Counted from the stretch's first letter, positions 501 to 63,417 are shown. The stretch: 64,000 nt of DNA from Candidatus Poribacteria bacterium (GCA_965261125.1 CBDHCS010000005.1:4902-68901); one strand, 5' to 3'. The notes: generated by a model from the letters alone, not told the origin. Numbers and translations are program-made.

Positions 501-1442
501 TTGCAAACCTACGATAATTTCGAATCTATCACCGAATTAACGCAGAACTCAGTTGTTACATTTGGCGTATTTGATGGATTACATATCGGTCACCAAGATG
601 TACTCAAAACAGTTCGTGCATGCGCTGATGCCGATGAACTTGTAAGCGTTCTGTTTGGGTTTTATCCACATCCCTTGGCATTCCTTGCGCCGGAAAAATG
701 CCCACCCGTTTTAATGTGCCTGCCGAAACGTATAGAAACACTTGAACAACTCGGAATAGACATTGCAATTTTTGTTAACTTCAATGAACAGATCGCATCA
801 ATGTCACCGCACACTTTTGTGAATAGTGTTTTGCTTGAGTCGTGCCGTGCCAAACATGTAGTTGTCGGTTATGCCTGCCAATTTGGAAAAGATCGGGAAG
901 GGAATGCAGCGTTATTGGAATCTATAGGCGAGCAGTTGCAATTTGGTGTTACGGTTGTTCCGCCGACTCAATTAAACGGTTTACCGGTACATAGCACACG
1001 CATCCGACAAGCAATTGCAAGAGGGGACCTCGGCTTAGCAGCGCAGCTGTTAGGAAGGATCTACTCCTTGAGTGGTACTATCATACGCGGCGATGGGCGC
1101 GGTAGGCAACTCGGTTTTCCTACTGCAAACATTGAACCGGGTGAACAACTTTGTCCCCCCAACGGTGTTTATGCTATTCGTGCAAAATTAGTAGACCGTT
1201 GGTTAGATGGTGTTTTAAACATTGGAATCCGGCCAACCTTTAATGGGACAAAATTTCAGGTAGAGAGCCACTTTTTTAATTTTAATGAAGCCATATATGA
1301 CGAAAATATAGAAATATTCTTTATTGAAAAGATTCGTAGCGAACGTAAATTCTCGAACATGCGTGCTTTGGTACAACAGATTCATAGGGATATCGCTGTT
1401 GCTGATGAAATACTTGCGCAGCAACCTAAGACGCATTTATAG
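501..1442 (+). CDS. ribF: Bifunctional riboflavin kinase / FMN adenylyltransferase
   Basis: 313 aa. N-terminal nucleotidyltransferase motif GVFDGLHIGHQ and a C-terminal riboflavin-kinase region. TTG start at 501. Confidence 0.85.
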   Translation: MQTYDNFESITELTQNSVVTFGVFDGLHIGHQDVLKTVRACADADELVSVLFGFYPHPLAFLAPEKCPPVLMCLPKRIETLEQLGIDIAIFVNFNEQIASMSPHTFVNSVLLESCRAKHVVVGYACQFGKDREGNAALLESIGEQLQFGVTVVPPTQLNGLPVHSTRIRQAIARGDLGLAAQLLGRIYSLSGTIIRGDGRGRQLGFPTANIEPGEQLCPPNGVYAIRAKLVDRWLDGVLNIGIRPTFNGTKFQVESHFFNFNEAIYDENIEIFFIEKIRSERKFSNMRALVQQIHRDIAVADEILAQQPKTHL

Positions 1443-1463
1443 TGAATCCAAAATCTAATCATT

Positions 1464-2099
1464 TTATAGTCGGTTTCCTACCCACAGAACGCCTCTGCGG
1501 ACTACCTCTTGAAAACTCGAATTTTCAAGCACAGCCATATCGTGTCCCAAGGCGAAATAGAAAATCCTACCCTCGCCATATTTATGGTGGAACGCCATAA
1601 CATGAGTTTCGTCCTTAGTGTTGTCATAAGCGTGCATCAGATGCTGCGAAGTGTCAGGATTGTGTTTTAGATAGTAGAGTTCATCTGTTACCTCAAAATC
1701 AGTTAACCCAGCGGAAATTGGATGATCAGAGTCGCTTACGTTGACTGTGAAATCCATATAAGGACTATGCCCGTTGAAAAATCCGTTGAGCATGCTGTGA
1801 TAGCCTTCAGATTCTCGGAAGGAAGCAGCTGCAGTGTGCAATCCAAAAAATCCACCACCTGATCGGATATAGTTGAGTAATCCTGCCTCTTGTTCCGCTG
1901 TAAGTTCACCAACATCGGTATAGAAAAGTACAGTGTTATAGATGTTAAGACCATCGGCAAGCACAGCGTAATCTCGTGAAAAATCGGCTTCAATGTTATC
2001 AGTGTTGTTAAGCATCTTTGTTAGGAACTTTCCGTTCCCTTCATGGTCGTGATAAATACCTTCTGTCCCGATAAATACAAGTGATTTAAGAATGTCCAT
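1464..2099 (-). CDS. ThuA-like (trehalose-utilisation, class-I glutamine-amidotransferase-like fold) protein
   Basis: 211 aa. GGGFFGLH motif typical of the ThuA family. Confidence 0.6.
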   Translation of the reverse strand: MDILKSLVFIGTEGIYHDHEGNGKFLTKMLNNTDNIEADFSRDYAVLADGLNIYNTVLFYTDVGELTAEQEAGLLNYIRSGGGFFGLHTAAASFRESEGYHSMLNGFFNGHSPYMDFTVNVSDSDHPISAGLTDFEVTDELYYLKHNPDTSQHLMHAYDNTKDETHVMAFHHKYGEGRIFYFALGHDMAVLENSSFQEVVRRGVLWVGNRL

Positions 2100-2109
2100 T
2101 TTTCTCCTT

Positions 2110-3141
2110 TTAATTGTTAGGCATCACAAGAACTTTTACGGAACCGTGTTCATCCCGTCCCGCTGCAACGGCAAAAGCTTGTGAAATCTCGTCCAATCTG
2201 AAACGGTGTGTGATCAATGGGGTAGGGTCAAGTTTGCGGGCAGCAAGCAGGTCAATAGCAATTTGGAACTCGGTTTTGCCACCACGCCTGCCATAACAAA
2301 ATGACCATAGGACCGTCAATTCACGACTGCGGGCAAACCGTTCTGAAAAGGTGAGTGGCGCGCCATGCCCGCCGACCATACAGACTCGCCCCCGTTTTGC
2401 TGCAATCTGCGTTGCTTGTTCCAACGTGTTTGCCTTACCACCGACTGCTTCAAAAACGACATCAGCCCCGCGCCCGTTGCTCCAATCCATGATGGCTTCC
2501 ACAGCATCAGTTTTATCTACATTAATTGGCACGGCACTGACTGCTTCATGGGCAATTTGTATGGGGGTATCCGGCTTTCCTAAAACTGCAATGGATGTCG
2601 CCCCTGCCACATTCGCTACCTGTGCAATCGTCAAACCGACGGGACCGCTCCCGATAATCGCAACGCGGTCACCAGGTGAGACCATCGCCCTATTGACAGC
2701 ATGTACTGCAACTGCATATACCTCTGCCAATGCACCACCTTCAGCGGAGACGCTATCTGGAAGAGAATAAGCATTTGAGGTGCGTGCAACCATATACTCA
2801 GCAAAACCGCCACCAGCGTGTCGTAAATTTCCACAGATATTATAGTAACCGTTGTAACATTCCGGACAATTGTTACATGGACTAATCGGCTCAATTGCGA
2901 CACGTTCCCCTGCTTTATGTTCGGTAACGTCTTTTCCTATATCTACAATTTGTCCCGTTAATTCATGTCCACCGATGCGAGGTGACAAAGGTTTATCCGG
3001 TTGATGGTGATATCCGTGCAGATCGCTTCCACAGATACCTGCCGCTTCTACCTGTACCAGGACCTGTCCAGTTTCTGGCGTTGGGTCAGGAACTGTTTCA
3101 ACTCGAATATCTTTTCCGCCGTAAAATTGGGCTGCTTTCAT
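2110..3141 (-). CDS. Zinc-dependent alcohol dehydrogenase family (sorbitol/threonine dehydrogenase-like)
   Basis: GICGSDLHGY zinc-ADH signature and a GxGxxG Rossmann motif (IGSGPVG). ATG at 3141 (MKAAQFYGG) is preceded by GGAGGG; the longer ORF extends to 3183. Confidence 0.85.
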   Translation of the reverse strand: MKAAQFYGGKDIRVETVPDPTPETGQVLVQVEAAGICGSDLHGYHHQPDKPLSPRIGGHELTGQIVDIGKDVTEHKAGERVAIEPISPCNNCPECYNGYYNICGNLRHAGGGFAEYMVARTSNAYSLPDSVSAEGGALAEVYAVAVHAVNRAMVSPGDRVAIIGSGPVGLTIAQVANVAGATSIAVLGKPDTPIQIAHEAVSAVPINVDKTDAVEAIMDWSNGRGADVVFEAVGGKANTLEQATQIAAKRGRVCMVGGHGAPLTFSERFARSRELTVLWSFCYGRRGGKTEFQIAIDLLAARKLDPTPLITHRFRLDEISQAFAVAAGRDEHGSVKVLVMPNN

Positions 3142-3218
3142 ATTCCCTCCACATGTGCTAAAAGTCTGTATAAAGCGTAGCACAGATAAAAGATTACGTC
3201 AAAGCGTTTTCTATATCA

Positions 3219-3351
3219 CAGGACTTACGCATTCCCCCCGCTTGCGGGGGGATAAAGGGGGGTAAAACCTTGAAAAGGACAAAAAATCAGGGTTAATATC
3301 CGTGAAAGGACAAAATTCTAAACAGGGATACTTGAATTTGCGTAAGTCCTG
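3219..3351. repeat. MITE-like element, family A copy 1. Terminal inverted repeats CAGGACTTACGCA ... TGCGTAAGTCCTG, with internal core CGCTTGCGGGGGGATAAAGGGGGG
   Basis: Perfect 13-bp TIRs. The same element recurs at 7677, 17150, 20231 and 28289. Confidence 0.8.
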
Positions 3352-3451
3352 TATCAATAGGGTTATTTAGTTTTCTGTCTTTCTTGCGAAGTTTATCACA
3401 AATGTTAATATTATGTAATATTCTGTAGGCCGGGTAGAGATCAGTGGAACC

Positions 3452-3621
3452 CCATAGGTGTCAACTGAAGGAAATATTTCTTGTTCTAAAAACCCTTCTG
3501 AATTAGCATGACGATTCGGACTGTCCCATATTTCAGTCCCGACAAATATCAAAAAGCACATTTGTCGGGACTGAAGAGGGTTGCCCATGTTTAGAAAACC
3601 CTTAAATTGACACCTATAGTG
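3452..3621. repeat. Palindromic intergenic element (family F). Outer inverted repeat CCATAGGTGTCAA / TTGACACCTATAGTG encloses a 14-bp-stem hairpin (3534..3573). It is followed by a REP-like hairpin GTGCGGTTTgaaACCACAC
   Basis: Inverted repeats read directly. The right-end motif (TTAAATTGACaCCTATaGTGCGGTTTCCTAACC) recurs at 7610..7646. Confidence 0.6.
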
Positions 3622-3761
3622 CGGTTTGAAACCACACCTCTGAGTTAGCGGGCCAACTGATACGCTAAACCCACATCTATGGTTGTCAACGTTTACGAAT
3701 AAACACCGGGGTTGTGTCGATCATTGATGAAGGGTTGTTTGCTGGTAATACTGTGAGGCAA

Positions 3762-6068
3762 CTAACGAATCTGCCATAGCAGGATTGTGCCGTCGTAGCT
3801 GCCGCTGACAATAGTGTTTCCATCTGGAGAAAGAGCCACAGTGTGAACACCTTCCGTATGTCCTGTGAGTGTATTTTTGTGTTCTCCAGTATGTGCGTTC
3901 CACAATCGCACCGTCTTATCATGGCTGCCAGTAGCGATCGTCTTTCCATCCGGAAAAAATACTATGGAGAAAACTACTTCTGTATGCCCACTGAGTGTCG
4001 CTATATGTTTACCTGTGCTTGCGTCCCATAACTGCACTGGAGGATTGTCGCCGGTTTCTGTAGGGTCCAGGGTTGTAAGTTCGCCCGTATTTGCGCCCCT
4101 CAAGTGCTGTGGGGCGTTCTCGCCGTAAATTCCGGTAGCGAGAGTGTTTCCATCTGGAGAAAACGCTACAGACTTGACAGCCCCCTTATGTCGTAATGTG
4201 TTTTTGTGTTCTCCAGTCCGTGCGTTCCACAATCGCACTGTCTTGTCAGCACTTGCACTGGCGATAGTTTCTCCATCCGGAGAAAATGCCACGGAATAGA
4301 TCGGACCTGTATGTCCTTTGAAAGTTGATATGTTTTTTTCTGTTTGCGTATCCCACAAACGTACCGTGTTATCGAGGCTTCCTGAAACGATCGTGTTTCC
4401 GTCTGGAGAAAATGCCACGGAATAGATCCCTTCTGTATGTCCTTTGAAAGTTGATATGTTTTTTCCTATTTGTGCGTCCCACAATTGCACTGTATTGTCA
4501 AACTTTCCACCAGTAACTATCATATTCCCATCCGGAGAAAACATTACGGAATCAACATCACCCGTGTTCCGTCCTATGAGTGTATTTTTGTTTTTTCCTG
4601 TTCGTGTGTCCCACAACTGCACTGTTCCATCATGATGACCACTAACAATGGTTTTACCGTCCGGAGATAACACTATGGAAGTGATCGACCACGTATGTCC
4701 TGGGAGGGTGTTTTTGCGTTTTCCTGTTTGTGCGTCCCACAAATGTACTGTATTGTCCCAACTCCCCGTAGCGATAGTTTTTCCGTCCGGTGAAAACACT
4801 ACAGAAGTAACAGCACCTTTATGTCCTGAGAATGTGCTTTTGTGCTTTCCTGTTTGTGCGTCCCACAACCGGGCTCTACTCCAATGCCCAGTAACGATCG
4901 TCCCTCCATCCGGTGAATACACTACGGAGCGGGCACTATCTGTGAGTCCTTTTAGTGTATTTAGTCTACTTTTGTATTCTCCACTGTTTGTGTCCCACAA
5001 ACGTACCGTGTTATCTTTACTTGTAGTAACGATCGTCCTTCCATCCGGAGAAAATGCGATAGCACGGACACTGTCTGTATGCCCAGTAAGTGTATTTTTG
5101 TTCTTTCCTGCCTGAGTATCCCACAACCGCACTGTTTTGTCCTCACTCCCAATCGCAAGAATGTTTCCATTCGGGGAAAATGCTAAAGAAACGACATTAG
5201 GAGGAAATGCTGCAGAAGTGGCATAATCTGGTGGACCTCCTGTGGATACAGCCAAATCTGTACCTCCTGTGAATATAATTTTGTGTTCTCCTGTCTGAGT
5301 ATCCCACAACCGCACTGTGTTATCTCCACTACTCAGGGTAGCGATAGTAGCACTATTAGGGGAAAATGCTATAGAAGTAACAGACGATGTATGTCCTTCG
5401 AGTGTAGCTAAGTTTGTCCCTGTCCGTGTATCCCATAGCCGGACAGTTTTGTCATAACTTGCTGTAACAATCGTTCCTCCATCCGAAGAGAATGCGATGG
5501 CACAGACACTGTCCGTATGTCCAGTAAACAAGTCAATTTCTTTTTCTTTACCGGGACGCGCGTCATAAATCCAAATTCCGATGGAACTTGCAACGGCAAG
5601 CCGAGTACCATCCGGCGAGAAAGCGACATTTCCTGTTATATCACCTTTACCGAGGCGCGCTTTTGCACCTTCGGGCAGCGCCCATTGTGTATAGTCTACT
5701 GAGTCGGATAAACTCTGATTTGATTCCTGTCCCGTGCCATTACCTCTACCGGGAGTATCAGAATTATTTCCAACTATATTTCGAATATCCGGTTTTGCAT
5801 CAATCTCCTGGACTATAGGTGCATCAATAAGTTCTACTGCCATCTCAGACTGCATGTCCAAACTATAAGGTTGCTGGAAGCGCGCTAAATTCTTACTGCC
5901 CATGCCAAGTATGAACACAATCAAAATGGCACCAGATGCAGCCAACACCCACGGCATAAAAGGATTGCTTCCAGAAGGTGCAACAGGATTAAGATGTGCA
6001 ACTTCTCTCATTATGTTTTCAGTTAAGTTTGCGGATATTTGGAAATTGCTGAGTGCCTCTCTAATCAT
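3762..6068 (-). CDS. Membrane-anchored anti-sigma factor with a large periplasmic WD40 beta-propeller domain (about 14 WD repeats)
   Basis: 768 aa. The N-terminal cytoplasmic segment is followed by a TM helix (WVLAASGAILIVFILGM) and then repeated FSPDG...WD units. It lies 14 bp downstream of an ECF sigma gene, with an AAGGAGG RBS. Confidence 0.75.
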   Translation of the reverse strand: MIREALSNFQISANLTENIMREVAHLNPVAPSGSNPFMPWVLAASGAILIVFILGMGSKNLARFQQPYSLDMQSEMAVELIDAPIVQEIDAKPDIRNIVGNNSDTPGRGNGTGQESNQSLSDSVDYTQWALPEGAKARLGKGDITGNVAFSPDGTRLAVASSIGIWIYDARPGKEKEIDLFTGHTDSVCAIAFSSDGGTIVTASYDKTVRLWDTRTGTNLATLEGHTSSVTSIAFSPNSATIATLSSGDNTVRLWDTQTGEHKIIFTGGTDLAVSTGGPPDYATSAAFPPNVVSLAFSPNGNILAIGSEDKTVRLWDTQAGKNKNTLTGHTDSVRAIAFSPDGRTIVTTSKDNTVRLWDTNSGEYKSRLNTLKGLTDSARSVVYSPDGGTIVTGHWSRARLWDAQTGKHKSTFSGHKGAVTSVVFSPDGKTIATGSWDNTVHLWDAQTGKRKNTLPGHTWSITSIVLSPDGKTIVSGHHDGTVQLWDTRTGKNKNTLIGRNTGDVDSVMFSPDGNMIVTGGKFDNTVQLWDAQIGKNISTFKGHTEGIYSVAFSPDGNTIVSGSLDNTVRLWDTQTEKNISTFKGHTGPIYSVAFSPDGETIASASADKTVRLWNARTGEHKNTLRHKGAVKSVAFSPDGNTLATGIYGENAPQHLRGANTGELTTLDPTETGDNPPVQLWDASTGKHIATLSGHTEVVFSIVFFPDGKTIATGSHDKTVRLWNAHTGEHKNTLTGHTEGVHTVALSPDGNTIVSGSYDGTILLWQIR

Positions 6069-6082
6069 CGGTTCCTCCTTCT

Positions 6083-6628
6083 TTAGTCTTGCCTTGCACG
6101 GCTGAGCCTACTCTTAATCGCACTTGACGATACACCTAAAAATCTGCTAATCTCTTCACACGTCATGTTGCCGAAGTAGTGTAGGACCATTACCGTCCGC
6201 TCACTCTCTTTTAGTTTAGAGAGCAACTTTTTGACGACTTCGCGTTGTTCATCTACCGTAACTTTTGCTTGTTCTGTAGCGACATATTGGGAATATGTCG
6301 GTTCTTCTATTATCTCAGTATCTATGTCTTCAAGCGATTCTGTCTCCAGGTGTTTTTTACGGAGCCATGCAAGGCATTGGCGCGTTGCAATTACGTATAG
6401 CCATCCAGAAAACTGATTCGGGTTTTTCAAGGTTGCCAATTTTTGATAGACCTTGAGAAAAGTATCTTGCGTAATTTCTTCAGCGATGTGAAAATCGCCT
6501 ATTTTCCGCCAAGCGAGTGCATGCACCTGTTTTTGGTATTTTTCCACCAAACTGGCAAAGGCAGTATCATCACCTGCAAGGATACTATATATCAGTTCAG
6601 CATCGTTATTTTTCATCAGATACCTCAA
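6083..6628 (-). CDS. ECF-type RNA polymerase sigma factor (sigma-70 family, regions 2 and 4)
   Basis: 181 aa. Region-2-like (DDTAFASLVEKYQKQVHALAWRKIGD) and region-4 HTH (MTCEEISRFLGVSSSAIKSRLSRAR). Confidence 0.85.
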   Translation of the reverse strand: MRYLMKNNDAELIYSILAGDDTAFASLVEKYQKQVHALAWRKIGDFHIAEEITQDTFLKVYQKLATLKNPNQFSGWLYVIATRQCLAWLRKKHLETESLEDIDTEIIEEPTYSQYVATEQAKVTVDEQREVVKKLLSKLKESERTVMVLHYFGNMTCEEISRFLGVSSSAIKSRLSRARQD

Positions 6629-6875
6629 AAAAGTGATAAATTAATGTCCTCTATATATAGTGACGCGGGGAGAGGGCAAAACGGTCGCATAATTCTGAAA
6701 AAAACTGTGGTTCAAGCTGTTTTTTCATGGAATAGATAGATTTCACAGGGGAATTTATTTCACAAACTGGAAAATTTGAAAAGATGTTGAGCTGCTGATT
6801 ATCTCTATGGGGAGGTGTGGTTTCAGCGTGGGGAGACCTATTCAGAAGCAACTTTTTGTTTGATGTGGCACGCAA

Positions 6876-7076
6876 TTAACGTACCTTCCATAGCAGAATT
6901 GTACCATCATCACTACCGCTGGCAATCATGTTTCCATCTGGTGAAAACGCAACGGAAGTGAGGCTAAACGGATCCGCAGAGTGGGTATTAGTGTGTTCTT
7001 TTGTGCGGGTATCCATAGGCGTCAATTTAAGAAAAGTAAGAACGATTTTTTGAAAAAAGTTGTTAAATGAAAACAC
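6876..7076 (-). pseudogene. Orphan fragment of a WD40 gene (last blade only)
   Basis: VAFSPDGNMIASGSDDGTILLWKVR matches the C-terminus of the 3762..6068 protein (VALSPDGNTIVSGSYDGTILLWQIR). There is no upstream propeller. Confidence 0.4.
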
Positions 7077-7129: not shown

Positions 7130-7474
7130 ATGAATACATTATCACAAATTCCTGAAAAAATGCAACAGATTCTGACAATGACTGATGATGATGCAGCACG
7201 CAATACAGGTTTTGTCAAAAGAAACCGCAAACTGACAGGCAGTCAGTTCGTGCAAACACTTGTTTTCAGTTGGTTAGAAAACCCAGATGCCACCTATACG
7301 CAACTCACACACACGGCTGGTTCCCTCGGCACACCTATCACGCGTCAAGCGATTGAACAGCGATTTACACCCGAAGCCGCAGAGACCCTCAAAGCAACTT
7401 TTGATGCTGCTGCGGTTGAGGGTATTTCTGCTGATCCACAAACGCTCCCACTTCCGCACGGACAATCACAATAG
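7130..7474 (+). mobile_element. Truncated N-terminal fragment of an IS4-family transposase
   Basis: VKRNRKLTGSQFVQTLVFSWLENPD resembles the conserved N-terminal KRRRRLPA..VVW.VLG..F motif of IS4 transposases. The ORF stops after 115 aa and has no DDE domain. Confidence 0.4.
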
Positions 7475-9939: not shown

Positions 9940-10671
9940 TTACCCACGTCCAACATAGAGTTGTCCAACGGGTAACACCGTTGCCTCTAACATATTGATA
10001 TTAGGTGGCAGCGTTGCCATGAGGACAGCAGCTTTAGCAAGTTCGTCAACATCCATCATCGGCTCAGACGGAGGAAATGGATGGTTCTGAATTCGTTCAA
10101 CATAAGTATTGCCGGGTTGCAAGCAGCTCGCCGTAATACCGTGGGCTCTACCTTCCAATGCTATTACCTGCGTCAATCCCCATATCCCGAATTTACTTGC
10201 ACTATAAGGCGCGCTACGTGGACGCACACGGTGTGCAGAGATACTACCGATATTGATAATACGTCCGCCTTCACCTTGTGCTTTCATAATCCGTATCGCT
10301 TCACGCGAGCAGAGAAACGGTGCACGGAGATTCACACCTATCACCTTATCCCATGCTTCCGTTGAAAGTTCGTCAATCGGACCGCCATCAAACGAACCAG
10401 CATTGTTAACAAGGATGTCTAAGCGTTCATATTCAGCCATCGCTTTTTCAAAGAGGACCTTAATTTGTTCCTCATCAGTAACATCAGTCGAGACAGCAAG
10501 AACTTTAACATTCATTTCGCGTAGTTCATTAGCAGTTTGCGAAAGCTGTTCAGCATTCCTTGCGGCAATAGTCAGACTTGCGCCTTCCGCAGCAAACCCT
10601 TTCGCTATGCCTTTCCCAATTCCTCTATTGCCCCCAGTAACAATTGCAACCTTTCCTTCTAATTGACCCAT
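9940..10671 (-). CDS. SDR-family short-chain dehydrogenase/reductase
   Basis: TGGNRGIGKGIA cofactor motif and YSASK catalytic motif. Its start overlaps the stop of the upstream gene (TAATG). Confidence 0.85.
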   Translation of the reverse strand: MGQLEGKVAIVTGGNRGIGKGIAKGFAAEGASLTIAARNAEQLSQTANELREMNVKVLAVSTDVTDEEQIKVLFEKAMAEYERLDILVNNAGSFDGGPIDELSTEAWDKVIGVNLRAPFLCSREAIRIMKAQGEGGRIINIGSISAHRVRPRSAPYSASKFGIWGLTQVIALEGRAHGITASCLQPGNTYVERIQNHPFPPSEPMMDVDELAKAAVLMATLPPNINMLEATVLPVGQLYVGRG

Positions 10672-11391
10672 TACGGATTCTCCTTTAACAATTCTAATAA
10701 CAAACTTTCTGTTCTAATTGCTTGCACCTTATTTCCTGCAAGGCGCATTGCAGCGAGATGTGCATGTAAAAATGCTAAATCTTCAGGTGTATCTACGTCG
10801 TACCAAGGGGGTAGAAGCTTGAGCGTAGCTTCTACGGTCTGAATACGTTTTACTGTCTGTTGAAAAACCTGCGGCGTACTCCACGCAATTTCCTCAAAGA
10901 TAAACGGAACTATTTTATTGAGATTTTCTATTGAAAAACCGATAAGATAATAACCGCCATCTACACTTGGACCAATAACAATATCGCGCGAGTCGAGACC
11001 TGCAACCGCTTCAAGAATATATGAAAGGGGAAGTGTCGGACTGTCGGAACCGACCAGTAAAATCTTTTCATATCCATTTTCGGATGCCCATTGCGTGGCA
11101 GAAGTAAGACGCACGCCCCAAATCTACGCCTGTTTGTGGAATGTAGGTAACATCGTTCCCAATTAACGCTTGTAAATCGCTTTGACTCTCTGGCGGCGTA
11201 TATGTGATAACCAAATCTATATTCGGGAGTTCAGCAAGGTTTTGGCACCAATCCAGGAGAAAAGCACGATATAACGATGCCGCTTGCTCTGGAGATAATA
11301 TTGGAAGTAGCCGCGTTTTTACCTGATTCGGGATCGGGTTTTTCGCGAAGACAATTAGACATGGACTCGATTCAGTATTCATCTGATGCAT
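10671..11391 (-). pseudogene. DUF2064 / TIGR04282-type glycosyltransferase-like gene split by a frameshift near 11105..11115
   Basis: ORFs 11068..11391 and 10671..11114 are consecutive parts of one family in different frames. The break is at a CCCC run. Confidence 0.5.
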
Positions 11392-13317: not shown

Positions 13318-14473
13318 ATGGAAAGATACCGAGTTGCTATTTTGGGTTGTAGAGGACGTGGAACAGCAGCTGCACGTGCATATCACGCGCACCCACGCAC
13401 CAAAATTGTTGGGCTTTGCGATTTGATTGAAGAAAGACGCAGAACATTAGGCGATGAAGTCAACGTAACAGCACAGTTCGCCGATCTTGATGAGATGATT
13501 CAACAAACGTCACCTGATATCGTTGCGATACCTACTGGTACTGAGTTTCACTACGATTTGTGTATGCGTGTTTTAGAACACGGCGTGCACATTGAAGTGG
13601 AAAAACCGATGTGTGTTGATCTTATGGAAGCTGATGCTGTGATAGCAAAGGCTGAGGAAAAAGGAGTGCAGGTAGCTGTGCATCATCAAGGGAGAGTTGG
13701 AGCATCTATGCAAGCGATTGCGCATGCCTTCAATGCCGGCAAAATTGGTGAATTGCGCTATATGTACGGCAGTGGAAAAGGATACTACGGTGGTTATGGC
13801 TTGATGAATATCGGCACGCATATGCTCAATAACATGCTACATTTTGGGAAGCGATGTGAAAACGTTGTCGCACAATTGACAACCGGCGGAAAGCCAATCA
13901 CACCCTATGACGTTGCCCCATCACCAAGTGGCATGGGAACTATTGCAGGTGAATATATCACGGCAACGATGCAGTATGAAGGCAACGTTACCGGCACATT
14001 ACTGCAACACCGTTTCGGCAAGATGGACACCAACGCTTATGCTATGGAACTCTTTGGCACCGAAGGCAGACTCTTTTGGAAAAAGCGGTGGTGCATGGCA
14101 CTTACCAACTCCACATTACCTTCCCGATGGCACAAACGACAAGTGGGAAACGCTGGAACTTATCTACCCTGACCACTATGACCCGAAAAGCAGTGCGGCT
14201 GAAGCCGATTACTGGTTTGTTGAGGAATATATCAATGCTTTAAATGAAGGTAGAGCACATACCTGCAGCGGTTATGCCGGACGACATATCATTGAGATGA
14301 TGATGGGCATCTTTGAATCTGCAGCTTATGGCATACGTGTGAATCTTCCCCAGAAAAACCGAAAACATCCATTACTACGGTGGCGTGAGGAATCAGGATT
14401 ACAACCACCAACAGAAATGCCACGCGGTTACGGTGAGTGGTTAACGTTGGAATCTAAGCGAATCCGTCAATGA
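13318..14473 (+). pseudogene. Gfo/Idh/MocA-family oxidoreductase interrupted by a frameshift near 14078..14090 (A5 run)
   Basis: ORFs 13318..14172 and 13907..14473 carry the N-terminal Rossmann part and the C-terminal family part in different frames. Confidence 0.6.
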
Positions 14474-29483: not shown

Positions 29484-31616
29484 TTACCTGAGGATACTAA
29501 ATTTGCCAATTTGTCGGACAACCGAATCTGCTTGCGTTGCAGCGATGTGGTAAATGTAGATACCCGAAGCGAGCGGCACGCCACGAAGGTTTGAACCGTC
29601 CCACTGAAATTTTCCAGGGGCAAGGACATTCTGATGTGTTTTGTTATAGACCTTCTCCCCTTTAATAGTAAAAATTTCAAGGGACACAGTGTCTGCGGAC
29701 TGGGAGGCAGAGAGTTGATACGCAAACGTCATTCCCGATGCTGATGGACGAAAAGGGTTCGGGTAAACACGGATCTGTGCAAGCGCGAAAGATTCGGGTT
29801 CTATCTGTTCGATTAACAACTTGTATGACGCAACACTGCTGAATCTACCGTCGGATGTTACCACAAGATATAACGTCTGTTGAGCAGAAGGTTGGTAAAG
29901 AATTTGGTAGCCGAGTAGATCAGGTGCTTTTTCGCCTATTGCTAACGTCTCTCCTGTCATCGTCAAGAGCGATAAACGGTAATCCAGATTTGCTGGAAAA
30001 TCTGATAGTGTTGCGCGGACTGTTACACCGCCAGCAGCTTCAATTCTATAAGAATCCTGGGTATCCGAAGCGTCGTATAGAAAAGAGTAATAGGGTTGGG
30101 CATAAAAGATTGGGAATGCCGTTCCTATAGTATCATTCGGTTCATAAGTATCACCAAACGAAACGAGCATCTTCATGACTGGGCCTTCAGGGCCAATGTT
30201 AGTTATAGATATACCGGTTGGCGTTCCATCGTTTGCACTACTGTTCGGCAAAGTGCCTGGCGTAAAGGCAGTTTGGTTATCATCTGCAGAGTAGGCTGCG
30301 CCTTCCGTGATGGTTTTGATGTTTATGATGTTCGGATCATCGGGATGAATGCCGAAATGTTCAGGATCATTAGGGTCTTCAAGCCAAATCTGTTGTGCGG
30401 CATCATAACTACGAAGGTCACGCACCTGTGTCTCATCAATGTGCCAAATGAGGATGCCGGATTCAGGCAGATAGGTATCAAAGGTAGCACCGGAGGCTTT
30501 ATATCGGTTTTCTATGAGAAAAAATTCTCTGTTAGTGGTAGCAAGTGCATCCCGGCCCTGTGGAATATCGATTTTAAAAAGTTTATCTGTTTTGGGTGGC
30601 AGTTCGAAAGCTGGAACAGATATCTGGCCACTTTGAGTGATGTTAACAGGCTTAATCCAACCAACGCGACCATTTTCTGGGCGGGCATCAAAATCCCATT
30701 TCAGGTACCCCATGATATGGCTGGGTGCTAATCCGTCCCCTAAACTAAAAACTTCTCGACCTTGATATGGACCGAATGCTCCCATCAATCCCCATTTATG
30801 ATCGCGAGCATCTGTGTAGGTAAACGCGTAGACATCTGGCGCGCCGAAGTCGTGGAAGAATTCGTGAAAGTAGATGCCTAAATGAGGTTTTTCAAAATCT
30901 GGTTCTTCGGCGACAACAACGGCAGTATCAACTCGAACACCGTCTACGATAACGTTGACATCTGGCGTTAAGATTGACCAGATATCATTAACTGCCTTAA
31001 CCGGGTCTATTGCACTGTAGGATGCTTCGTCATTCCCCGCATGAATGAGAAATAGGTGGTCAACGACTCCGTCTTTATCACGATCGTACTTTGAAAAATC
31101 GACGGTTGCATCTACAGCATGGCACGCTTCGGCGATTAGTTCTCGATAACGTTGTACTGGTCCTGGACCTTCAATTTCTCCATAATAACGCATCGGTTTC
31201 TTTGCGCGAATCCATTCGTTGCCTGCGGGCAGAACACCTCCAGCGGGTCCTGGCTGCACATCCATCTGGCCGTAAGAATTTTCGCGAAAGTAGGTTTTTA
31301 GGGAAACACCGGTTTCTGCAAATAGATATTCATTGAATTCAGCGCTGGTTCTTTTGCCCGGTTGATCGCTGAAATCAATTTTCAGGGCGAGGACATATTC
31401 AATACCGTCCGGTTGTAGTACGCTCTGTTCTCTGGCGAAGCAACAGCCATCCAACGCTTGTAAATATTTTGAGACACTGAGTTCAGAATTCTGCCCGGCG
31501 GAAGGTTTCGGCTTCATTTCACCGGTAACCGGATCTATGTCAAAATAGAGATACGGATTAGGCGGAGCAGCAAGACTAAATGTTGTAGCCGTGAGGAGGT
31601 ATCCCACGCAGAGCAT
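29484..31616 (-). CDS. Secreted M6-like (immune-inhibitor-A-type) zinc metalloprotease with a C-terminal beta-sandwich sorting-type domain
   Basis: HEFFHDFGAPDVY zinc-binding motif. Probable signal peptide MLCVGYLLTATTFSLAAP (start 31616; the ORF is open to 31850). The C-terminal about 90 aa resembles T9SS/Por-type secretion domains. Confidence 0.55.
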   Translation of the reverse strand: MLCVGYLLTATTFSLAAPPNPYLYFDIDPVTGEMKPKPSAGQNSELSVSKYLQALDGCCFAREQSVLQPDGIEYVLALKIDFSDQPGKRTSAEFNEYLFAETGVSLKTYFRENSYGQMDVQPGPAGGVLPAGNEWIRAKKPMRYYGEIEGPGPVQRYRELIAEACHAVDATVDFSKYDRDKDGVVDHLFLIHAGNDEASYSAIDPVKAVNDIWSILTPDVNVIVDGVRVDTAVVVAEEPDFEKPHLGIYFHEFFHDFGAPDVYAFTYTDARDHKWGLMGAFGPYQGREVFSLGDGLAPSHIMGYLKWDFDARPENGRVGWIKPVNITQSGQISVPAFELPPKTDKLFKIDIPQGRDALATTNREFFLIENRYKASGATFDTYLPESGILIWHIDETQVRDLRSYDAAQQIWLEDPNDPEHFGIHPDDPNIINIKTITEGAAYSADDNQTAFTPGTLPNSSANDGTPTGISITNIGPEGPVMKMLVSFGDTYEPNDTIGTAFPIFYAQPYYSFLYDASDTQDSYRIEAAGGVTVRATLSDFPANLDYRLSLLTMTGETLAIGEKAPDLLGYQILYQPSAQQTLYLVVTSDGRFSSVASYKLLIEQIEPESFALAQIRVYPNPFRPSASGMTFAYQLSASQSADTVSLEIFTIKGEKVYNKTHQNVLAPGKFQWDGSNLRGVPLASGIYIYHIAATQADSVVRQIGKFSILR

Positions 31617-31635
31617 TATGAATGCAAAAGATCTG

Positions 31636-32955
31636 TTAATCAAATTCACCACCACATTTTCTGCACAAAATGTAGAACTGGATGTCATCAGAATGGGCGT
31701 GTTGTTTAATAAGATCCACTGCTTGGTCCGGCAAATCTGCTTCACATTTTTGGCATTTATAGAGCGAACCTTCGGGTTCAGGAAATTTTCTGATATCGCC
31801 CCAGATGTCATGAAGCCAGTATTTAAATTCCCATGGAAACTCGGTCTCAACAGCTTTAGATATTTCTACTGCATGACGAATTAATTTTTGGCAATCTTCA
31901 AAGGTTGCAGGTTCATACGGGTGAGGTTCTGTGTGGAGGGGAATCGGTTTGCCTTCGGATGCGGTTTCTGGGTTAAACCTGCGCGAACGTGTCAGCAAGA
32001 TTTGGTCTAACCGTGTGCCTGGTTCTCTCCCTTTTGACCAGACGCGGTAATAACCTCGTCTTTTGACGTTAAAATAACCAGGGGTTGACTTCCCCAGTGG
32101 GTGTGTTGAAGTATCCCATAGCCAACGGTTCCATTTGGAATCGTCGCCAGGAACTGCCCAAATTTTGATTGCATTCGGCCCACCTTGTTCATCCCAAGGA
32201 TAAGGTTCTACATCTTCAATGCCGACCCAGTAAGAGTCTTGGCTGCCCGATTTATAATAGGTGCGAATCCATACGTACCACTTACCAGTTTTTGGGATGT
32301 AAACTTCATAAATACTGCGAGCCCCTCTGGCACTGTCGATGGCTTTGCCGTTAGAGGCTTCTGCCTCATCTACAATTTTTACACCGTTATCAAAATGTAT
32401 TGCAGTTTCTGCTTCAATAATAAGCGTATTTCTTGGAACACGGATCAATTCCTGTCTTGTATTTTTCTCTTCTCGCTCAGTTTCTTCTTTTTCTTCTTCT
32501 TCTGGCAGTGCTTGTTCTGGTTCAGTATAACTATTTCCGAACCGTTGACATGCGCGTTCAAACTGTTTTTCGGAAAGGTTTGCATCGTAAAAGCAATCCC
32601 GGACTCCTTTCTTCCAGAGGTCCAGAAGCAGAAACATAGCTTTTAGATTCCCATCAGGTCGTTTACGGGTGCCGACAACAATCAGCATACCGGTATCTCG
32701 TGAACGACTGACAAGACACAGATGGAGTGGATATTCAGGTGGTGCAACTTTTCGGCTTTTTACGATAAGCGGACTATAATATTTACAGCGATGGTCACAT
32801 CCGGGTATTTTTGCCCGTTTAGCACTACAACATTCTGGGCAAATGATCATGCTGCTGAGAGCAGGACATGTACGCTTACCATTACCGGAACGGCATGTAC
32901 GGCATCTGTGTTGTTTGGTACGTTTTTGTCTGGTAGAAAATCTCTGATGGCGCAT
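31636..32955 (-). CDS. Hypothetical protein with Cys clusters at both termini (zinc-ribbon-like) and an acidic linker
   Basis: 439 aa. N-terminal CRTC...CPEC...CDHRC and C-terminal CQKC...CRKCGGEFD. No family recognised. Confidence 0.45.
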   Translation of the reverse strand: MRHQRFSTRQKRTKQHRCRTCRSGNGKRTCPALSSMIICPECCSAKRAKIPGCDHRCKYYSPLIVKSRKVAPPEYPLHLCLVSRSRDTGMLIVVGTRKRPDGNLKAMFLLLDLWKKGVRDCFYDANLSEKQFERACQRFGNSYTEPEQALPEEEEKEETEREEKNTRQELIRVPRNTLIIEAETAIHFDNGVKIVDEAEASNGKAIDSARGARSIYEVYIPKTGKWYVWIRTYYKSGSQDSYWVGIEDVEPYPWDEQGGPNAIKIWAVPGDDSKWNRWLWDTSTHPLGKSTPGYFNVKRRGYYRVWSKGREPGTRLDQILLTRSRRFNPETASEGKPIPLHTEPHPYEPATFEDCQKLIRHAVEISKAVETEFPWEFKYWLHDIWGDIRKFPEPEGSLYKCQKCEADLPDQAVDLIKQHAHSDDIQFYILCRKCGGEFD

Positions 32956-60625: not shown

Positions 60626-61056
60626 TGGTCACCTACGCCAACAGTTTGCTATAGTTTAGCACAACTTGAATGGATAAGGCAAGCAGAAAAACGCGTGAAT
60701 CAGAGGCATTCAATTGTCACAGAATACTCTCGTGGGATGGTTTTCTAAGTCCGATATTATAAAATTTCCGCTTTGTCTGAACCAAGATTCTCATGATTGA
60801 AGATTTTGTCCCAACAGATCATTCACAGGGCGCAAAGTTTATGATGCATTGTGCTAAATCCGCAAGAGGCACCTTGATGAAAAATAATCTTGGTAATCTG
60901 CTAATCCTGAAAATCCTGGTTCAGACAATAAGATTCAGAGATTGACATTTAATCCAACCTATAGTAGAATAAATACAACGTTAAAATGATTTATATATTG
61001 CCCACGTTTTTCTATCCAGACAGGTGTTTAGCACAACGCAAAAGGAGAACAAACCG

Positions 61057-62151
61057 ATGAAAAACACGTTGTGTTTAATTTTGACAGCACTGTTGATAGC
61101 ATTCACATTTACATTTAACAGTCTTGCCCAAACCCCACAGGATGATCCACAACAGGGGGATCCACAACAAGGGGATCTCCCTGATGGCGCGGAAGTGCGG
61201 TCCGGGCCTGAGCAAGGTAGGATCAGAGATATAAAGTTTTCCCCCGATGGCACACGCCTTGCAGTGGCGAGAAGCCGCGGTATTTGGCTCTTGGATGTCC
61301 AGACAGGTGACGAACTTGTGCAATTCACAGGTTTTGCGGATTCTGCTGCTACTATTGCATTTAGCCCGGATGGCAATATGTTGGTCGGTAGTAGCATAAA
61401 GGACAATACCGTTCGTTTGTGGGATGTACACACAGGTAGGAACATCCGAGCATTCAAAGGACGCAGTAAGAAGAATTGGGTAGGGGACGTAGCGTTTAGT
61501 CCGGATGGCAAAACTATCGTAATTAGGCGTTGGAACAAAACCCTCTGTCTATTGGATCTGAACACAGGCAAAACCCTCCGAATATTCAAAAAGGATACAG
61601 AAAAGATATCACGTGTTGCGTTTAGCCCGGATGGTAGGACTATCGCAAGTAGCGGTGAGGATAAAACTGTGCGTCTGTGGGATGCACACACGGGCAAAAA
61701 CCTTCACACACTCACAGGGAATACGGAAAGGATATGGCACGTAGCATTTAGTCCGGATGGCAAAATGATAGCAAGTAAAAGTAATGATGATACTGTGCGT
61801 CTGTGGGATACGCACACCGGACAACCCCTACGCACAATATATATGTCTTCTCTTGGCTTCAACTTTGCGTTCAGTCCGGATAGCAAGATGATCGCATGTA
61901 TCGGTTTCGGTACTATCGATCTATGGGATGTGAACACGGGACAACACTTACGAAAACTCATAAAAACCTACAGACGACTAGCTTCTACACTGAATATCGG
62001 ACGCTTGATTGCGTTCAGTCCGGATGGCAGGATGATCGTAAGTGCTGGTCCATTTGAAGTCCATCTGTGGGATGCAAACACAGGACAACTCCTCCGAAAA
62101 CTCATAAGTCATCCCAAAGGCACTGATGTACGATCATTCCAAAGGAACTAA
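61057..62151 (+). CDS. Secreted WD40 beta-propeller protein (paralog 1)
   Basis: RBS AAAGGAG. Signal peptide MKNTLCLILTALLIAFTFTFNSLAQ, then about 7 FSPDG...WD blades. Confidence 0.75.
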   Translation: MKNTLCLILTALLIAFTFTFNSLAQTPQDDPQQGDPQQGDLPDGAEVRSGPEQGRIRDIKFSPDGTRLAVARSRGIWLLDVQTGDELVQFTGFADSAATIAFSPDGNMLVGSSIKDNTVRLWDVHTGRNIRAFKGRSKKNWVGDVAFSPDGKTIVIRRWNKTLCLLDLNTGKTLRIFKKDTEKISRVAFSPDGRTIASSGEDKTVRLWDAHTGKNLHTLTGNTERIWHVAFSPDGKMIASKSNDDTVRLWDTHTGQPLRTIYMSSLGFNFAFSPDSKMIACIGFGTIDLWDVNTGQHLRKLIKTYRRLASTLNIGRLIAFSPDGRMIVSAGPFEVHLWDANTGQLLRKLISHPKGTDVRSFQRN

Positions 62152-62154
62152 CCG

Positions 62155-63417
62155 ATGAAAAATAGATTGTTTTCAATTTTGACAGCACTTTTGATAATAG
62201 CATTCACATTTACATTTAATAGTCTCGCCCAAGATTCACCGCAAGAGGATATAGAGGATTTACTTGAATCAATACGAGAGAAAGCAAAGGATTTAAGTAA
62301 GGCCGAGAAAACGGGCGCGGTCAATAAACTTGTTTATTCTACCAACGATATAAGTTTTTCCCACGATGGCAAACGGCTCGCGTTGGCAGGGAACTACGGC
62401 ATTTTGATCTACGACATTCAGAGAAATCGCAAAAACGTTCAGGCAAGTTACAAACCTACCAAATTGAGAGAACATCAGAGGAGAGGGTGGCGGGTAGCGT
62501 TTAGTCCAGATGGCAAGCTAATCGCAAGTGCGAATGCTACAGGCACCCTTTACCTATGGGATGCGAAAACGGAAAAACTCCTTCGGACAATCGAAGGTGA
62601 GCCAGGATATTCACCTTTCTCGTGTATGGCATTTAGTCAGGATGGCAGGATACTCGTTACCGGAGGGAACAAGATTATCACAAGGGATCCTTGGATAAGC
62701 GAGGGCATAGTGCTTTTGTGGGATGCACAGACAGGAGAACACATCCGAACCCTAACAGGACATACGAGACATGTCGATAGTGTGGCATTTAGTCCGGACG
62801 GCATAACTATCGCTGCGGGTGACTCCGTCACTATCAGGGCAGATGGTAAAGACAGTGGAGATGCCACAGTGCGTTTATGGGATGCACGGACGGGAAAACT
62901 TCTTCGGACCTTAATGAGACATGGGGGTGAGATCAAATGCTTGGCGTTTAGTCCGGATGGAAAACTGCTCGCAAGTGGTGGGCCGTTCGACCCTGTTCGT
63001 TTATGGGATGTAAACACCGGACAACACATCAGAACACTCGCAAGTGATAGGACAAGAACTCCGAAGGATCTGGATCAAGGGAGGCCGTCGTTTGATTCGG
63101 TAGATAGCATTGCATTTAGCCCAGATGGTAGCACACTTGCAAGTTCCAGTATACTGCGGGCCCGCCTATGGGATGTAAAACGGGGACGACTCCTCCTAAA
63201 ATTCAGAGACCAAAATTCAGGCAATGGTCCTAGTGTAGTGGCGTTTAGTCCAAATGGAAAGACTATCGCAATCAGTAGAAGTTATGAACTTGAGCAAATA
63301 GTTCCCAAAAGCAATGGCGTTAAAATTACGAAAGAAATAGAACTGTGGGATGCGGAAACGGGAAAACATCTCCATAGGATCAAGTTAGAAAGGTACAGAT
63401 TCCAAATTTACCGATGA
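62155..63417 (+). CDS. Secreted WD40 beta-propeller protein (paralog 2)
   Basis: Signal peptide MKNRLFSILTALLIIAFTFTFNSLAQ is nearly identical at DNA level to paralog 1. It starts 3 bp after the paralog-1 stop. Confidence 0.75.
   Translation: MKNRLFSILTALLIIAFTFTFNSLAQDSPQEDIEDLLESIREKAKDLSKAEKTGAVNKLVYSTNDISFSHDGKRLALAGNYGILIYDIQRNRKNVQASYKPTKLREHQRRGWRVAFSPDGKLIASANATGTLYLWDAKTEKLLRTIEGEPGYSPFSCMAFSQDGRILVTGGNKIITRDPWISEGIVLLWDAQTGEHIRTLTGHTRHVDSVAFSPDGITIAAGDSVTIRADGKDSGDATVRLWDARTGKLLRTLMRHGGEIKCLAFSPDGKLLASGGPFDPVRLWDVNTGQHIRTLASDRTRTPKDLDQGRPSFDSVDSIAFSPDGSTLASSSILRARLWDVKRGRLLLKFRDQNSGNGPSVVAFSPNGKTIAISRSYELEQIVPKSNGVKITKEIELWDAETGKHLHRIKLERYRFQIYR

Follow-up and report, generated by a model that had tools for sequence, protein, structure and literature searches.

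A split ECF sigma factor locus in Candidatus Poribacteria, probably a frameshifted copy of a membrane-tethered sigma-WD40 protein

Sigma factors of the extracytoplasmic function (ECF) group that carry regulatory extensions are regarded as one-component systems among sigma factors. To our knowledge, studies exist for very few extension-bearing ECF sigma factors and for none whose sensor is of the WD40 type. Here we examine a locus on the minus strand of a 64,000-nucleotide stretch of DNA from a Candidatus Poribacteria bacterium (GCA_965261125.1, CBDHCS010000005.1:4902-68901; this whole stretch is called the window below). Positions 3762 to 6628 hold an open reading frame (ORF) for an ECF sigma factor and, behind it, an ORF for a 768-amino-acid (aa) membrane protein with WD40 repeats. 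An earlier note on this DNA, made from the sequence alone, interpreted the arrangement as a sigma gene co-transcribed with the gene for its membrane anti-sigma factor. The comparisons presented below indicate that the locus is probably one frameshift-split copy of a family in which sigma domain, transmembrane (TM) helix and sensor form a single membrane-tethered polypeptide.

In ECF01-Gob proteins a TM helix joins the sigma core to a WD40 region. This group, now ECF57, occurs in Planctomycetes and is described in a review as having WD40 extensions and two cysteines that possibly link sigma2 and sigma4 (PMC8999054). Planctomycetal genomes carry 5.3 copies each (Casas-Pastor et al., PMC7826278), and ECF57-type sigma factors have been detected in Tuwongella membrane fractions (PMC8567305). 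Compared by description, the family examined here shares with ECF57 an ECF core with a C-terminal WD40 region and several paralogs per genome, and the planctomycete parallel drawn in the earlier note is apt in this respect. The C-terminal WD40 fusion holds in full-length relatives and, in the window, only after an absent base has been restored. The two groups differ in host phylum, Planctomycetes versus Candidatus Poribacteria. Moreover, the same review files ECF57 as 'activated by protein interaction' (PMC8999054), whereas the Poribacterial family has a TM helix and probably exported propellers. Also unlike ECF57, this family has a conserved internal Shine-Dalgarno sequence (SD) with ATG, and variants whose ectodomains are not WD40.

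A second comparison is offered by IutY of Pseudomonas putida (ECF243), which likewise combines an N-terminal ECF sigma domain, one TM helix and a periplasmic C-terminal domain in one polypeptide. Experiments have shown that processing by Prc and then by RseP frees the sigma domain of this hybrid (PMC5411451, PMC8999054). By analogy, IutY is the best mechanistic model for intact members of the Poribacterial family. However, IutY has an anti-sigma region of the FecR type and takes part in cell-surface signalling together with a TonB-dependent transducer. The window protein gives no match to a FecR profile and has a double propeller of WD40 repeats as its sensor. The genes next to the locus encode alcohol-dehydrogenase-like, ThuA, RibF, TIM-barrel and PhyH proteins, and none of them is for a TonB-dependent receptor.

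ECF sigma factors with a C-terminal extension that holds both TM helices and an extracytoplasmic domain are also found in ECF52, ECF48 and ECF53. For these, of which SCO4117 of Streptomyces coelicolor is an example, proteolytic removal of the extension has been proposed (PMC8999054). These actinobacterial proteins differ in carrying a zinc-finger (ZAS-like) anti-sigma domain, whereas the linker of the present family has neither a Cys/His motif nor a profile match. Finally, the window as sequenced resembles the RseA/RsiW type, in which the gene behind the sigma gene encodes a single-pass membrane protein, oriented N-in, whose extracytoplasmic domain is large. It differs from that type in that the membrane protein has no anti-sigma domain and the two ORFs are one ORF in every relative examined.

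The architecture is therefore already known, both as sigma-WD40 fusions (ECF57) and as membrane-spanning hybrids (IutY and ECF52/48/53). A literature search found no paper that names Poribacteria, 'sigma factor' and WD40 together. As far as we know, what is new is the size of the Poribacterial expansion, its swappable ectodomains, its conserved promoter and internal SD/ATG, and its natural fission and deletion derivatives.

The split locus and its fused relatives

The ECF sigma reading frame occupies 6083..6628 (minus strand) when taken from its farthest TTG start. Its probable start codon is the ATG at 6616, which has GAGG in front of it and gives a protein of 177 aa. The 768-aa ORF (3762..6068, minus strand) begins 14 nucleotides (nt) past the TAA of the sigma ORF, and AAGGAGG lies 5 nt ahead of its ATG. 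Apart from small corrections, both ORFs and the 14-nt gap are located as the earlier note had claimed. No terminator-like site was found between the two ORFs on the minus strand.

The 768-aa frame can be read upstream of its ATG. Three-frame translation gives ARLKKEEP-MIREAL, which is the usual end of ECF region 4 followed by the linker; the 14-nt gap therefore reads as a frameshift scar. Relatives bear this out. A genome scan with a single conceptual junction peptide, one genome per species, yielded 289 matching stretches, of which the best 80 are listed as loci; counts out of 80 refer to these best 80 of 289, and L numbers denote genomic loci. All 80 loci belong to Candidatus Poribacteria, and all 80 have one continuous ORF over the junction, mostly of 870-1140 aa, with the tblastn match spanning sigma region 4, linker, TM helix and stalk in one frame. 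Likewise, proteins homologous to residues 1-154 of the 768-aa ORF have sigma regions 2 and 4 in front where they extend far enough, and they run on across the junction without a break ('…RARQRLKKEEPMIREAL…').

The lesion itself is visible in a nucleotide alignment with 12 orthologs and paralogs. Where the relatives read CAA CGN CTA AAR AAG GAG GAA CCG ATG, the window reads CAA -GA CTA AAG AAG GAG GAA CCG ATG. One nucleotide of the Arg codon is missing, at 6088/6089, and an in-frame TAA results at 6083-6085. The sigma ORF consequently stops early ('…SRLSRARQD*'), and the split removes its final residues, RLKKEEP.

Two of the fused loci are orthologous to the window locus, because their downstream genes (alcohol-dehydrogenase-like, ThuA-like and RibF) are common to the window, at 91-94% nucleotide identity. 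Counted from the ATG, the orthologous gene in both of these loci (L012 and L008) is one uninterrupted ORF, 905-907 aa long. The closest relative, L006, is 93% identical over the junction and encodes 912 aa. An exhaustive HMMER search with the N-terminal 140 residues against 1.84 billion cluster representatives (50% identity) found 247 relatives at E <= 1e-3. Among the best 150 of these 247, 103 have a full sigma domain ahead of the module, which begins at about residue 184. Every named match to the family is from the sponge symbionts Candidatus Poribacteria, and the family is apparently restricted to that group. Thus the proposal that the sigma factor and the TM-WD40 protein belong together was right, to the extent that relatives carry them as covalently one protein. 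It was wrong in making them a co-transcribed pair of genes, given that 80/80 loci are fused. For annotation, sigma and 'anti-sigma' pairs of this type need a frameshift check before they are filed as two genes.

The features of the locus are as follows, in the order of transcription.

6661..6689, minus strand: candidate ECF-type promoter, TGCGACC (-35), 16-nt spacer and GCGTCA (-10), with about 45 nt between its end and the start codon of the sigma ORF
6083..6616, minus strand: ECF sigma domain ORF with sigma2 and sigma4, 177 aa (Pfam, NCBIfam)
6086..6091, minus strand: frameshift site, CAA GA(C) against CAA CGN C in relatives (nucleotide alignment, three-frame translation)
6069..6082, minus strand: 14-nt 'gap', coding (…KKEEP) in relatives; holds AAGGAGG at 6074..6080, 5 nt before the ATG at 6066-6068
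5964..6068, minus strand: conserved cytoplasmic linker, residues 1-35, MIREALSNFQISANLTENIMREV…, with two short predicted helices (consensus of 74 loci)
5895..5963, minus strand: single TM helix, residues 36-58 (hydropathy; AlphaFold2 helix)
5694..5894, minus strand: extracytoplasmic stalk, residues 59-125 (conservation; low confidence in the AlphaFold2 model)
3765..5681, minus strand: 14 WD40 blades, residues about 130-768 (Pfam, blade count, AlphaFold2, Foldseek)

The upstream half is an ECF (group 4) sigma factor of the sigma-70 family, with region 2 and region 4 domains only. It matches Sigma70_r2 (PF04542, 2.3e-15) and Sigma70_r4_2 (PF08281, 4.3e-14) in Pfam, and scores 96.1 bits against the NCBIfam sigma70-ECF model TIGR02937 (cut-off 42.9). 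SigW and other NCBIfam equivalog-type models are the best matches of the sigma core, all of them far under their cut-offs. The predicted sigma fold of a fused homolog, P0009, matches chains of SigW, AlgU and sigmaE. A cysteine in sigma2 is present in 122/122 aligned family sequences and one in sigma4 in 99/122; a motif search found both in 32/80 genomic loci.

In the downstream half, Pfam recognizes WD40 repeats (E = 7.8e-147) in 13 stretches, and 14 'SPDG…LWD' blades can be counted, the first of them read by eye. The only hydrophobic segment is at residues 36-58 (Kyte-Doolittle, 19-residue window, 2.22). An AlphaFold2 model built with 62 relatives has a predicted template modelling score (pTM) of 0.81 and places a helix at residues 39-57. 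Residues 135-766 are all-beta, mostly with a predicted local distance difference test score (pLDDT) of 90 or more, and residues 56-122 fall below 50, as for a disordered stalk. The best Protein Data Bank (PDB) matches found by Foldseek are tandem two-propeller proteins, namely 2ymu, Aip1 (1nr0) and Utp proteins, and the Aip1 entry is described as 'two seven-bladed propellers'. The WD40 region is accordingly modelled as two seven-bladed propellers. Hydropathy, Pfam, blade count and structure prediction thus agree with the single TM helix and the double propeller of about 14 repeats that were first read from the sequence.

An N-in/C-out orientation with an exported WD40 sensor is supported, as had been proposed. 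The orientation follows from the N-terminal position of the sigma domain in relatives, and export from the presence of a single TM helix together with the existence of WD40 paralogs that carry Sec signal peptides. In L012 and L008 such a paralog lies upstream of the sigma gene, and the window itself holds two in tandem at 61024..63417. In the family, a cytoplasmic sigma2-sigma4 pair is joined by a conserved linker of about 45 aa to a single TM helix, behind which come a conserved stalk and the exported sensor. The stalk contains the juxtamembrane motif LARFQQPYSLD.QSEM.VELIDAP; the part behind this motif is of low complexity and predicted to be disordered. Across paralogs with differing ectodomains this motif is as conserved as the cytoplasmic linker (74 loci), and it could be where a protease or a partner protein acts.

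The ectodomain varies within the family. Here it consists of WD40 repeats, and in a large subfamily of about 443-aa proteins (P0057, P0063, P0089 and others; L092, 3001..4329) its place is taken by an unannotated domain, about 170 aa long. This subfamily has the same sigma domain, linker, TM helix and stalk. Its conserved ectodomain gives no Pfam match, the family promoter motif was not seen upstream of its genes, and its junction reads AAG AAG GCA GAA CCC ATG.

With at least 289 copies in Poribacteria species representatives and 247 clusters at 50% identity, the family is a large natural data set. Its interchangeable ectodomains, recognizable promoter, and sigma-less and split derivatives make both sigma release and propeller sensing approachable by heterologous reconstitution.

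Predicted control of the sigma domain

Class I anti-sigma domains are roughly 80-90 aa long. The 768-aa protein has just 36 residues ahead of its TM helix, and this cytoplasmic part is under the size of such a domain. It also contains no HxxxCxxC motif. Searches of Pfam and NCBIfam at E <= 10 with residues 1-142 gave no match, to an anti-sigma domain or to anything else, and the junction segment gave none in Pfam at the same threshold. The anti-sigma similarity that the earlier note expected at the N terminus was therefore not found, which is one of the two outcomes that the note had named as refuting its reading.

In an AlphaFold2 model of the fused homolog P0009, the sigma2 domain is predicted with confidence and the sigma4 domain with moderate confidence, and the two linker helices have pLDDT values of 72-79. 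The root-mean-square deviation of the model is 7-12 Å from sigma chains in sigma/anti-sigma complexes (SigW-RsiW, CnrH-CnrY and AlgU-MucA), versus 27-29 Å from sigma chains bound to RNA polymerase (RNAP). These values hint weakly that the modelled sigma domain may be in a closed, inhibited state. P0009 itself (L001/L002/L003, 6001..8132) is only 267 aa long and ends just past the TM helix, directly upstream of a cluster of DDE-transposase genes of insertion sequences (IS). We infer that this truncation was caused by IS insertion; the genomes are IS-rich.

ECF sigma factors are usually autoregulated, from promoters with an AAC-containing -35 and a CGT-containing -10 element. The motif TGNNACC-N15/16-GCGTCA stands ahead of 59/80 family loci, its median distance to the start codon being 49 nt, and would fit ECF-type autoregulation. 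In the 64-kb window its only strict match is the one at 6661..6689, where 0.04 are expected from shuffled sequences. Looser versions are not enriched over chance in the window (16 found, 23 expected).

A further signal is embedded in the coding sequence. The SD and ATG from which the 768-aa ORF starts pre-exist, in frame, within intact family genes. The K-E pair at the junction is written AAG-GAG in 66/78 family ORFs, compared with 11% for K-E dipeptides elsewhere in these ORFs, and about 66 of the 75 occurrences of AAGGAGG in 231 kb of family ORFs are at the junction. The Arg, Leu, Ile and Glu codons beside it vary freely. Because these neighbouring synonymous sites vary, the pattern argues for selection on the nucleotides of the in-frame AAGGAGG-N5-ATG.

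Derivatives without a sigma domain also begin at this Met. L090 and L091 come from two independent assemblies. In both, the promoter is kept and the first 12 codons of the sigma gene run out of frame into '…RLKQEGP', giving a 34-aa leader, and an intact 889-aa TM-WD40 ORF (P0149) starts from the internal Met. This sigma-less arrangement is present as a tandem duplicate (2140..5170 and 5400..7027 in L090; also L091). In L086 (2623..3477) the promoter is fused directly to AAGGAAGAACCC-ATG-MIREAI, and the WD40 part is frameshifted. In addition, 11 of the best 150 of the 247 representatives begin exactly at the internal Met. It is possible, though we put this forward tentatively, that AAGGAGG-N5-ATG is a working internal start. 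Each intact gene would then make both a full-length tethered sigma factor and a sigma-less TM-WD40 decoy or trans inhibitor, and the family could flip between one and two proteins by a single indel or deletion. If this is true, the window, L090 and L086 would be snapshots of sigma/anti-sigma-like modules that arise from, or collapse into, one-component sigma factors.

We hypothesize that the sigma domain of an intact family protein is held inactive at the membrane, possibly by packing of the linker helices on sigma2/sigma4. Binding of a periplasmic ligand or partner protein by the exported double propeller would be followed by cleavage in the conserved juxtamembrane region (site-1) and then by intramembrane cleavage at site-2 (RseP-type). 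The freed sigma domain would switch on its own TGCGACC-N16-GCGTCA promoter and further targets, and the internal start may add a sigma-less TM-WD40 isoform. In the window as sequenced, nothing would tether the sigma domain, and translation of the TM-WD40 protein would start from the SD that is already there. Contact between sponges and their symbionts is believed to involve eukaryote-like repeat proteins that the symbionts export. A sigma factor wired to an exported domain of this kind would couple host or particle sensing to transcription.

Several points weigh against this account. Autoinhibition and proteolytic release of family members are inferred by analogy, and docking of the linker on sigma2/sigma4 is approached indirectly, through pLDDT values and matches to closed-form PDB entries. 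No gene for a site-1 or site-2 protease came up beside the locus, although none was searched for. The window has no second strict copy of the promoter, and the regulon search thus returned only the gene's own promoter. The SD statistic takes no account of phylogeny, and the non-WD40 subfamily of about 443 aa lacks GGAGG at the junction. Lastly, two more frameshifted genes, encoding DUF2064 and GFO/IDH/MocA proteins, lie within 8 kb, and the split itself is possibly an assembly artefact.

Origin of the split

Whether the split is a real recent mutation or an assembly indel is about evenly balanced. The second explanation, by which a sequencing or assembly error interrupts what is an ordinary intact fused gene in the organism, has close to an even chance of being correct. 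Three frameshifted genes in about 8 kb, two of them at homopolymer runs, would be accounted for in this way, and related long-read metagenome contigs show many such breaks. If AGA was the codon affected, the absent base could be an A out of a run of three, although the site is not a long homopolymer. Neither half has another lesion, and both have a ratio of nonsynonymous to synonymous substitution rates (dN/dS) of 0.13-0.17 against L006. True IS insertions and deletions do, however, occur in this family in Poribacterial genomes, and an IS-truncated gene lies directly upstream of the locus. An independent copy of the window strain against which to check the base was not found: two exact/gapped pattern scans of metagenome contigs gave no matches, and look-ups of three window proteins as exact sequences returned none on record.

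Should the frameshift be real, the locus might be a decaying pseudogene that is being lost like its IS-damaged neighbour, with neither product working. We consider this unlikely. The adjoining WD40 gene has been cut down to one blade beside an IS4 remnant, orthologs are broken at other places elsewhere (the P0001 locus, P0308 and P0312), and the sigma part shows a slightly raised dN/dS against the closest relative (0.17, compared with 0.06 against relatives that are more distant). Such decay has nevertheless left only one lesion, with promoter, both start sites and 945 codons intact and the downstream ORF still translatable from its own SD.

A third possibility is that the split is both real and functional, so that a free ECF sigma factor is sequestered in trans by the 36-residue cytoplasmic tail of the TM-WD40 protein, the two forming a gene fission pair. 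The downstream ORF can indeed be translated alone from a perfect, pre-existing SD and ATG, and an intact sigma-less TM-WD40 gene from the same Met is kept elsewhere (P0149, in two assemblies). The halves are otherwise intact, at the dN/dS values given above, and the conserved linker helices are placed beside a compact sigma domain in the model, at moderate confidence. Against this stand the short cytoplasmic segment and its lack of any anti-sigma profile similarity at E <= 10, the loss of RLKKEEP from the end of the sigma factor, and the fusion of all 80 related loci, by which the arrangement is unique to the window among the loci examined. Moreover, the split may be absent from the organism. 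We therefore regard a functional fission pair as quite improbable.

Programmed -1 ribosomal frameshifting, which after the CAA codon would restore the fused protein as …RARQ-RLKKEEPMIREAL…, has a negligible chance of being correct and was rejected, since CAA GAC TAA offers no slippery X XXY YYZ heptamer, the SD-like element is downstream rather than upstream of the shift site, and 0/80 relatives need a shift.

Neighbouring genes and other observations

Two features lie immediately next to the locus.

6876..7013, minus strand: remnant of a WD40 gene, last blade, matching the 3' end of the L012 gene at 1235..4057 with 83-87% nucleotide identity
7130..7474, plus strand: N-terminal fragment of an IS4-family transposase (NCBIfam NF033592, E = 2.1e-8)

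The ORF fragment at 6876..7076 (minus strand) encodes one WD40 blade (PF00400, 2.2e-10), which shares 58% identity with the final blade of the 768-aa protein. The L012 gene at 1235..4057 and its counterpart in L008 are flanked by mutL and the sigma gene. Both encode an N-terminal signal peptide and no sigma domain, and their C terminus ('…SGSDDGTILLWKIR*') matches the window fragment. Two blades appear to have been lost from the remnant by repeat-to-repeat recombination, and homology ends at about 7013, adjoining the IS4 fragment. The ORF at 7130..7474 scores 33.7 bits against NF033592, where the cut-off is 115, and has no match in Pfam. It is a fragment, the N-terminal quarter, because it is below the cut-off and covers only profile positions 11-91 of 332. 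The profile matches thus agree with the original identification of a last WD40 blade and a truncated IS4 transposase. The suggestion that a second sigma/anti-sigma-WD40 locus had been destroyed here holds for an IS-damaged WD40 gene and fails for the sigma factor, since the L012 and L008 counterpart is a signal-peptide WD40 gene without one. On these sequence comparisons, the destroyed neighbour is best read as a secreted WD40 paralog in whose loss an IS was involved.

Exported WD40 proteins seem to be common in the window genome. The tandem signal-peptide WD40 genes at 61024..62151 and 62155..63417 (plus strand) encode proteins of about 375 and 420 aa with near-identical leaders, MKN.L..ILTALLI.FTFTFNSLAQ.

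The DUF2064 gene (10671..11391, minus strand) consists of two overlapping ORFs, with a frameshift at a G run, G3 to G4 by our reading (…GATTTGGGGCGTG…). Its Pfam match covers profile positions 47-120 only, in the downstream part. The GFO/IDH/MocA oxidoreductase gene (13318..14473, plus strand) is frameshifted at an A5 run (…TGGAAAAAGCGG…), and its C-terminal part is in another frame. An Rfam scan of the window returned no RNA family. A Peptidase_M6 (immune inhibitor A-like) ORF at 29484..31850 (minus strand) carries a C-terminal FlgD_ig/CHU_C (type IX secretion) domain. It is overlapped by about 215 nt by an upstream 439-aa ORF (31636..32955, minus strand) that has no Pfam match, and this overlap may represent a further frameshift or a mis-set start.

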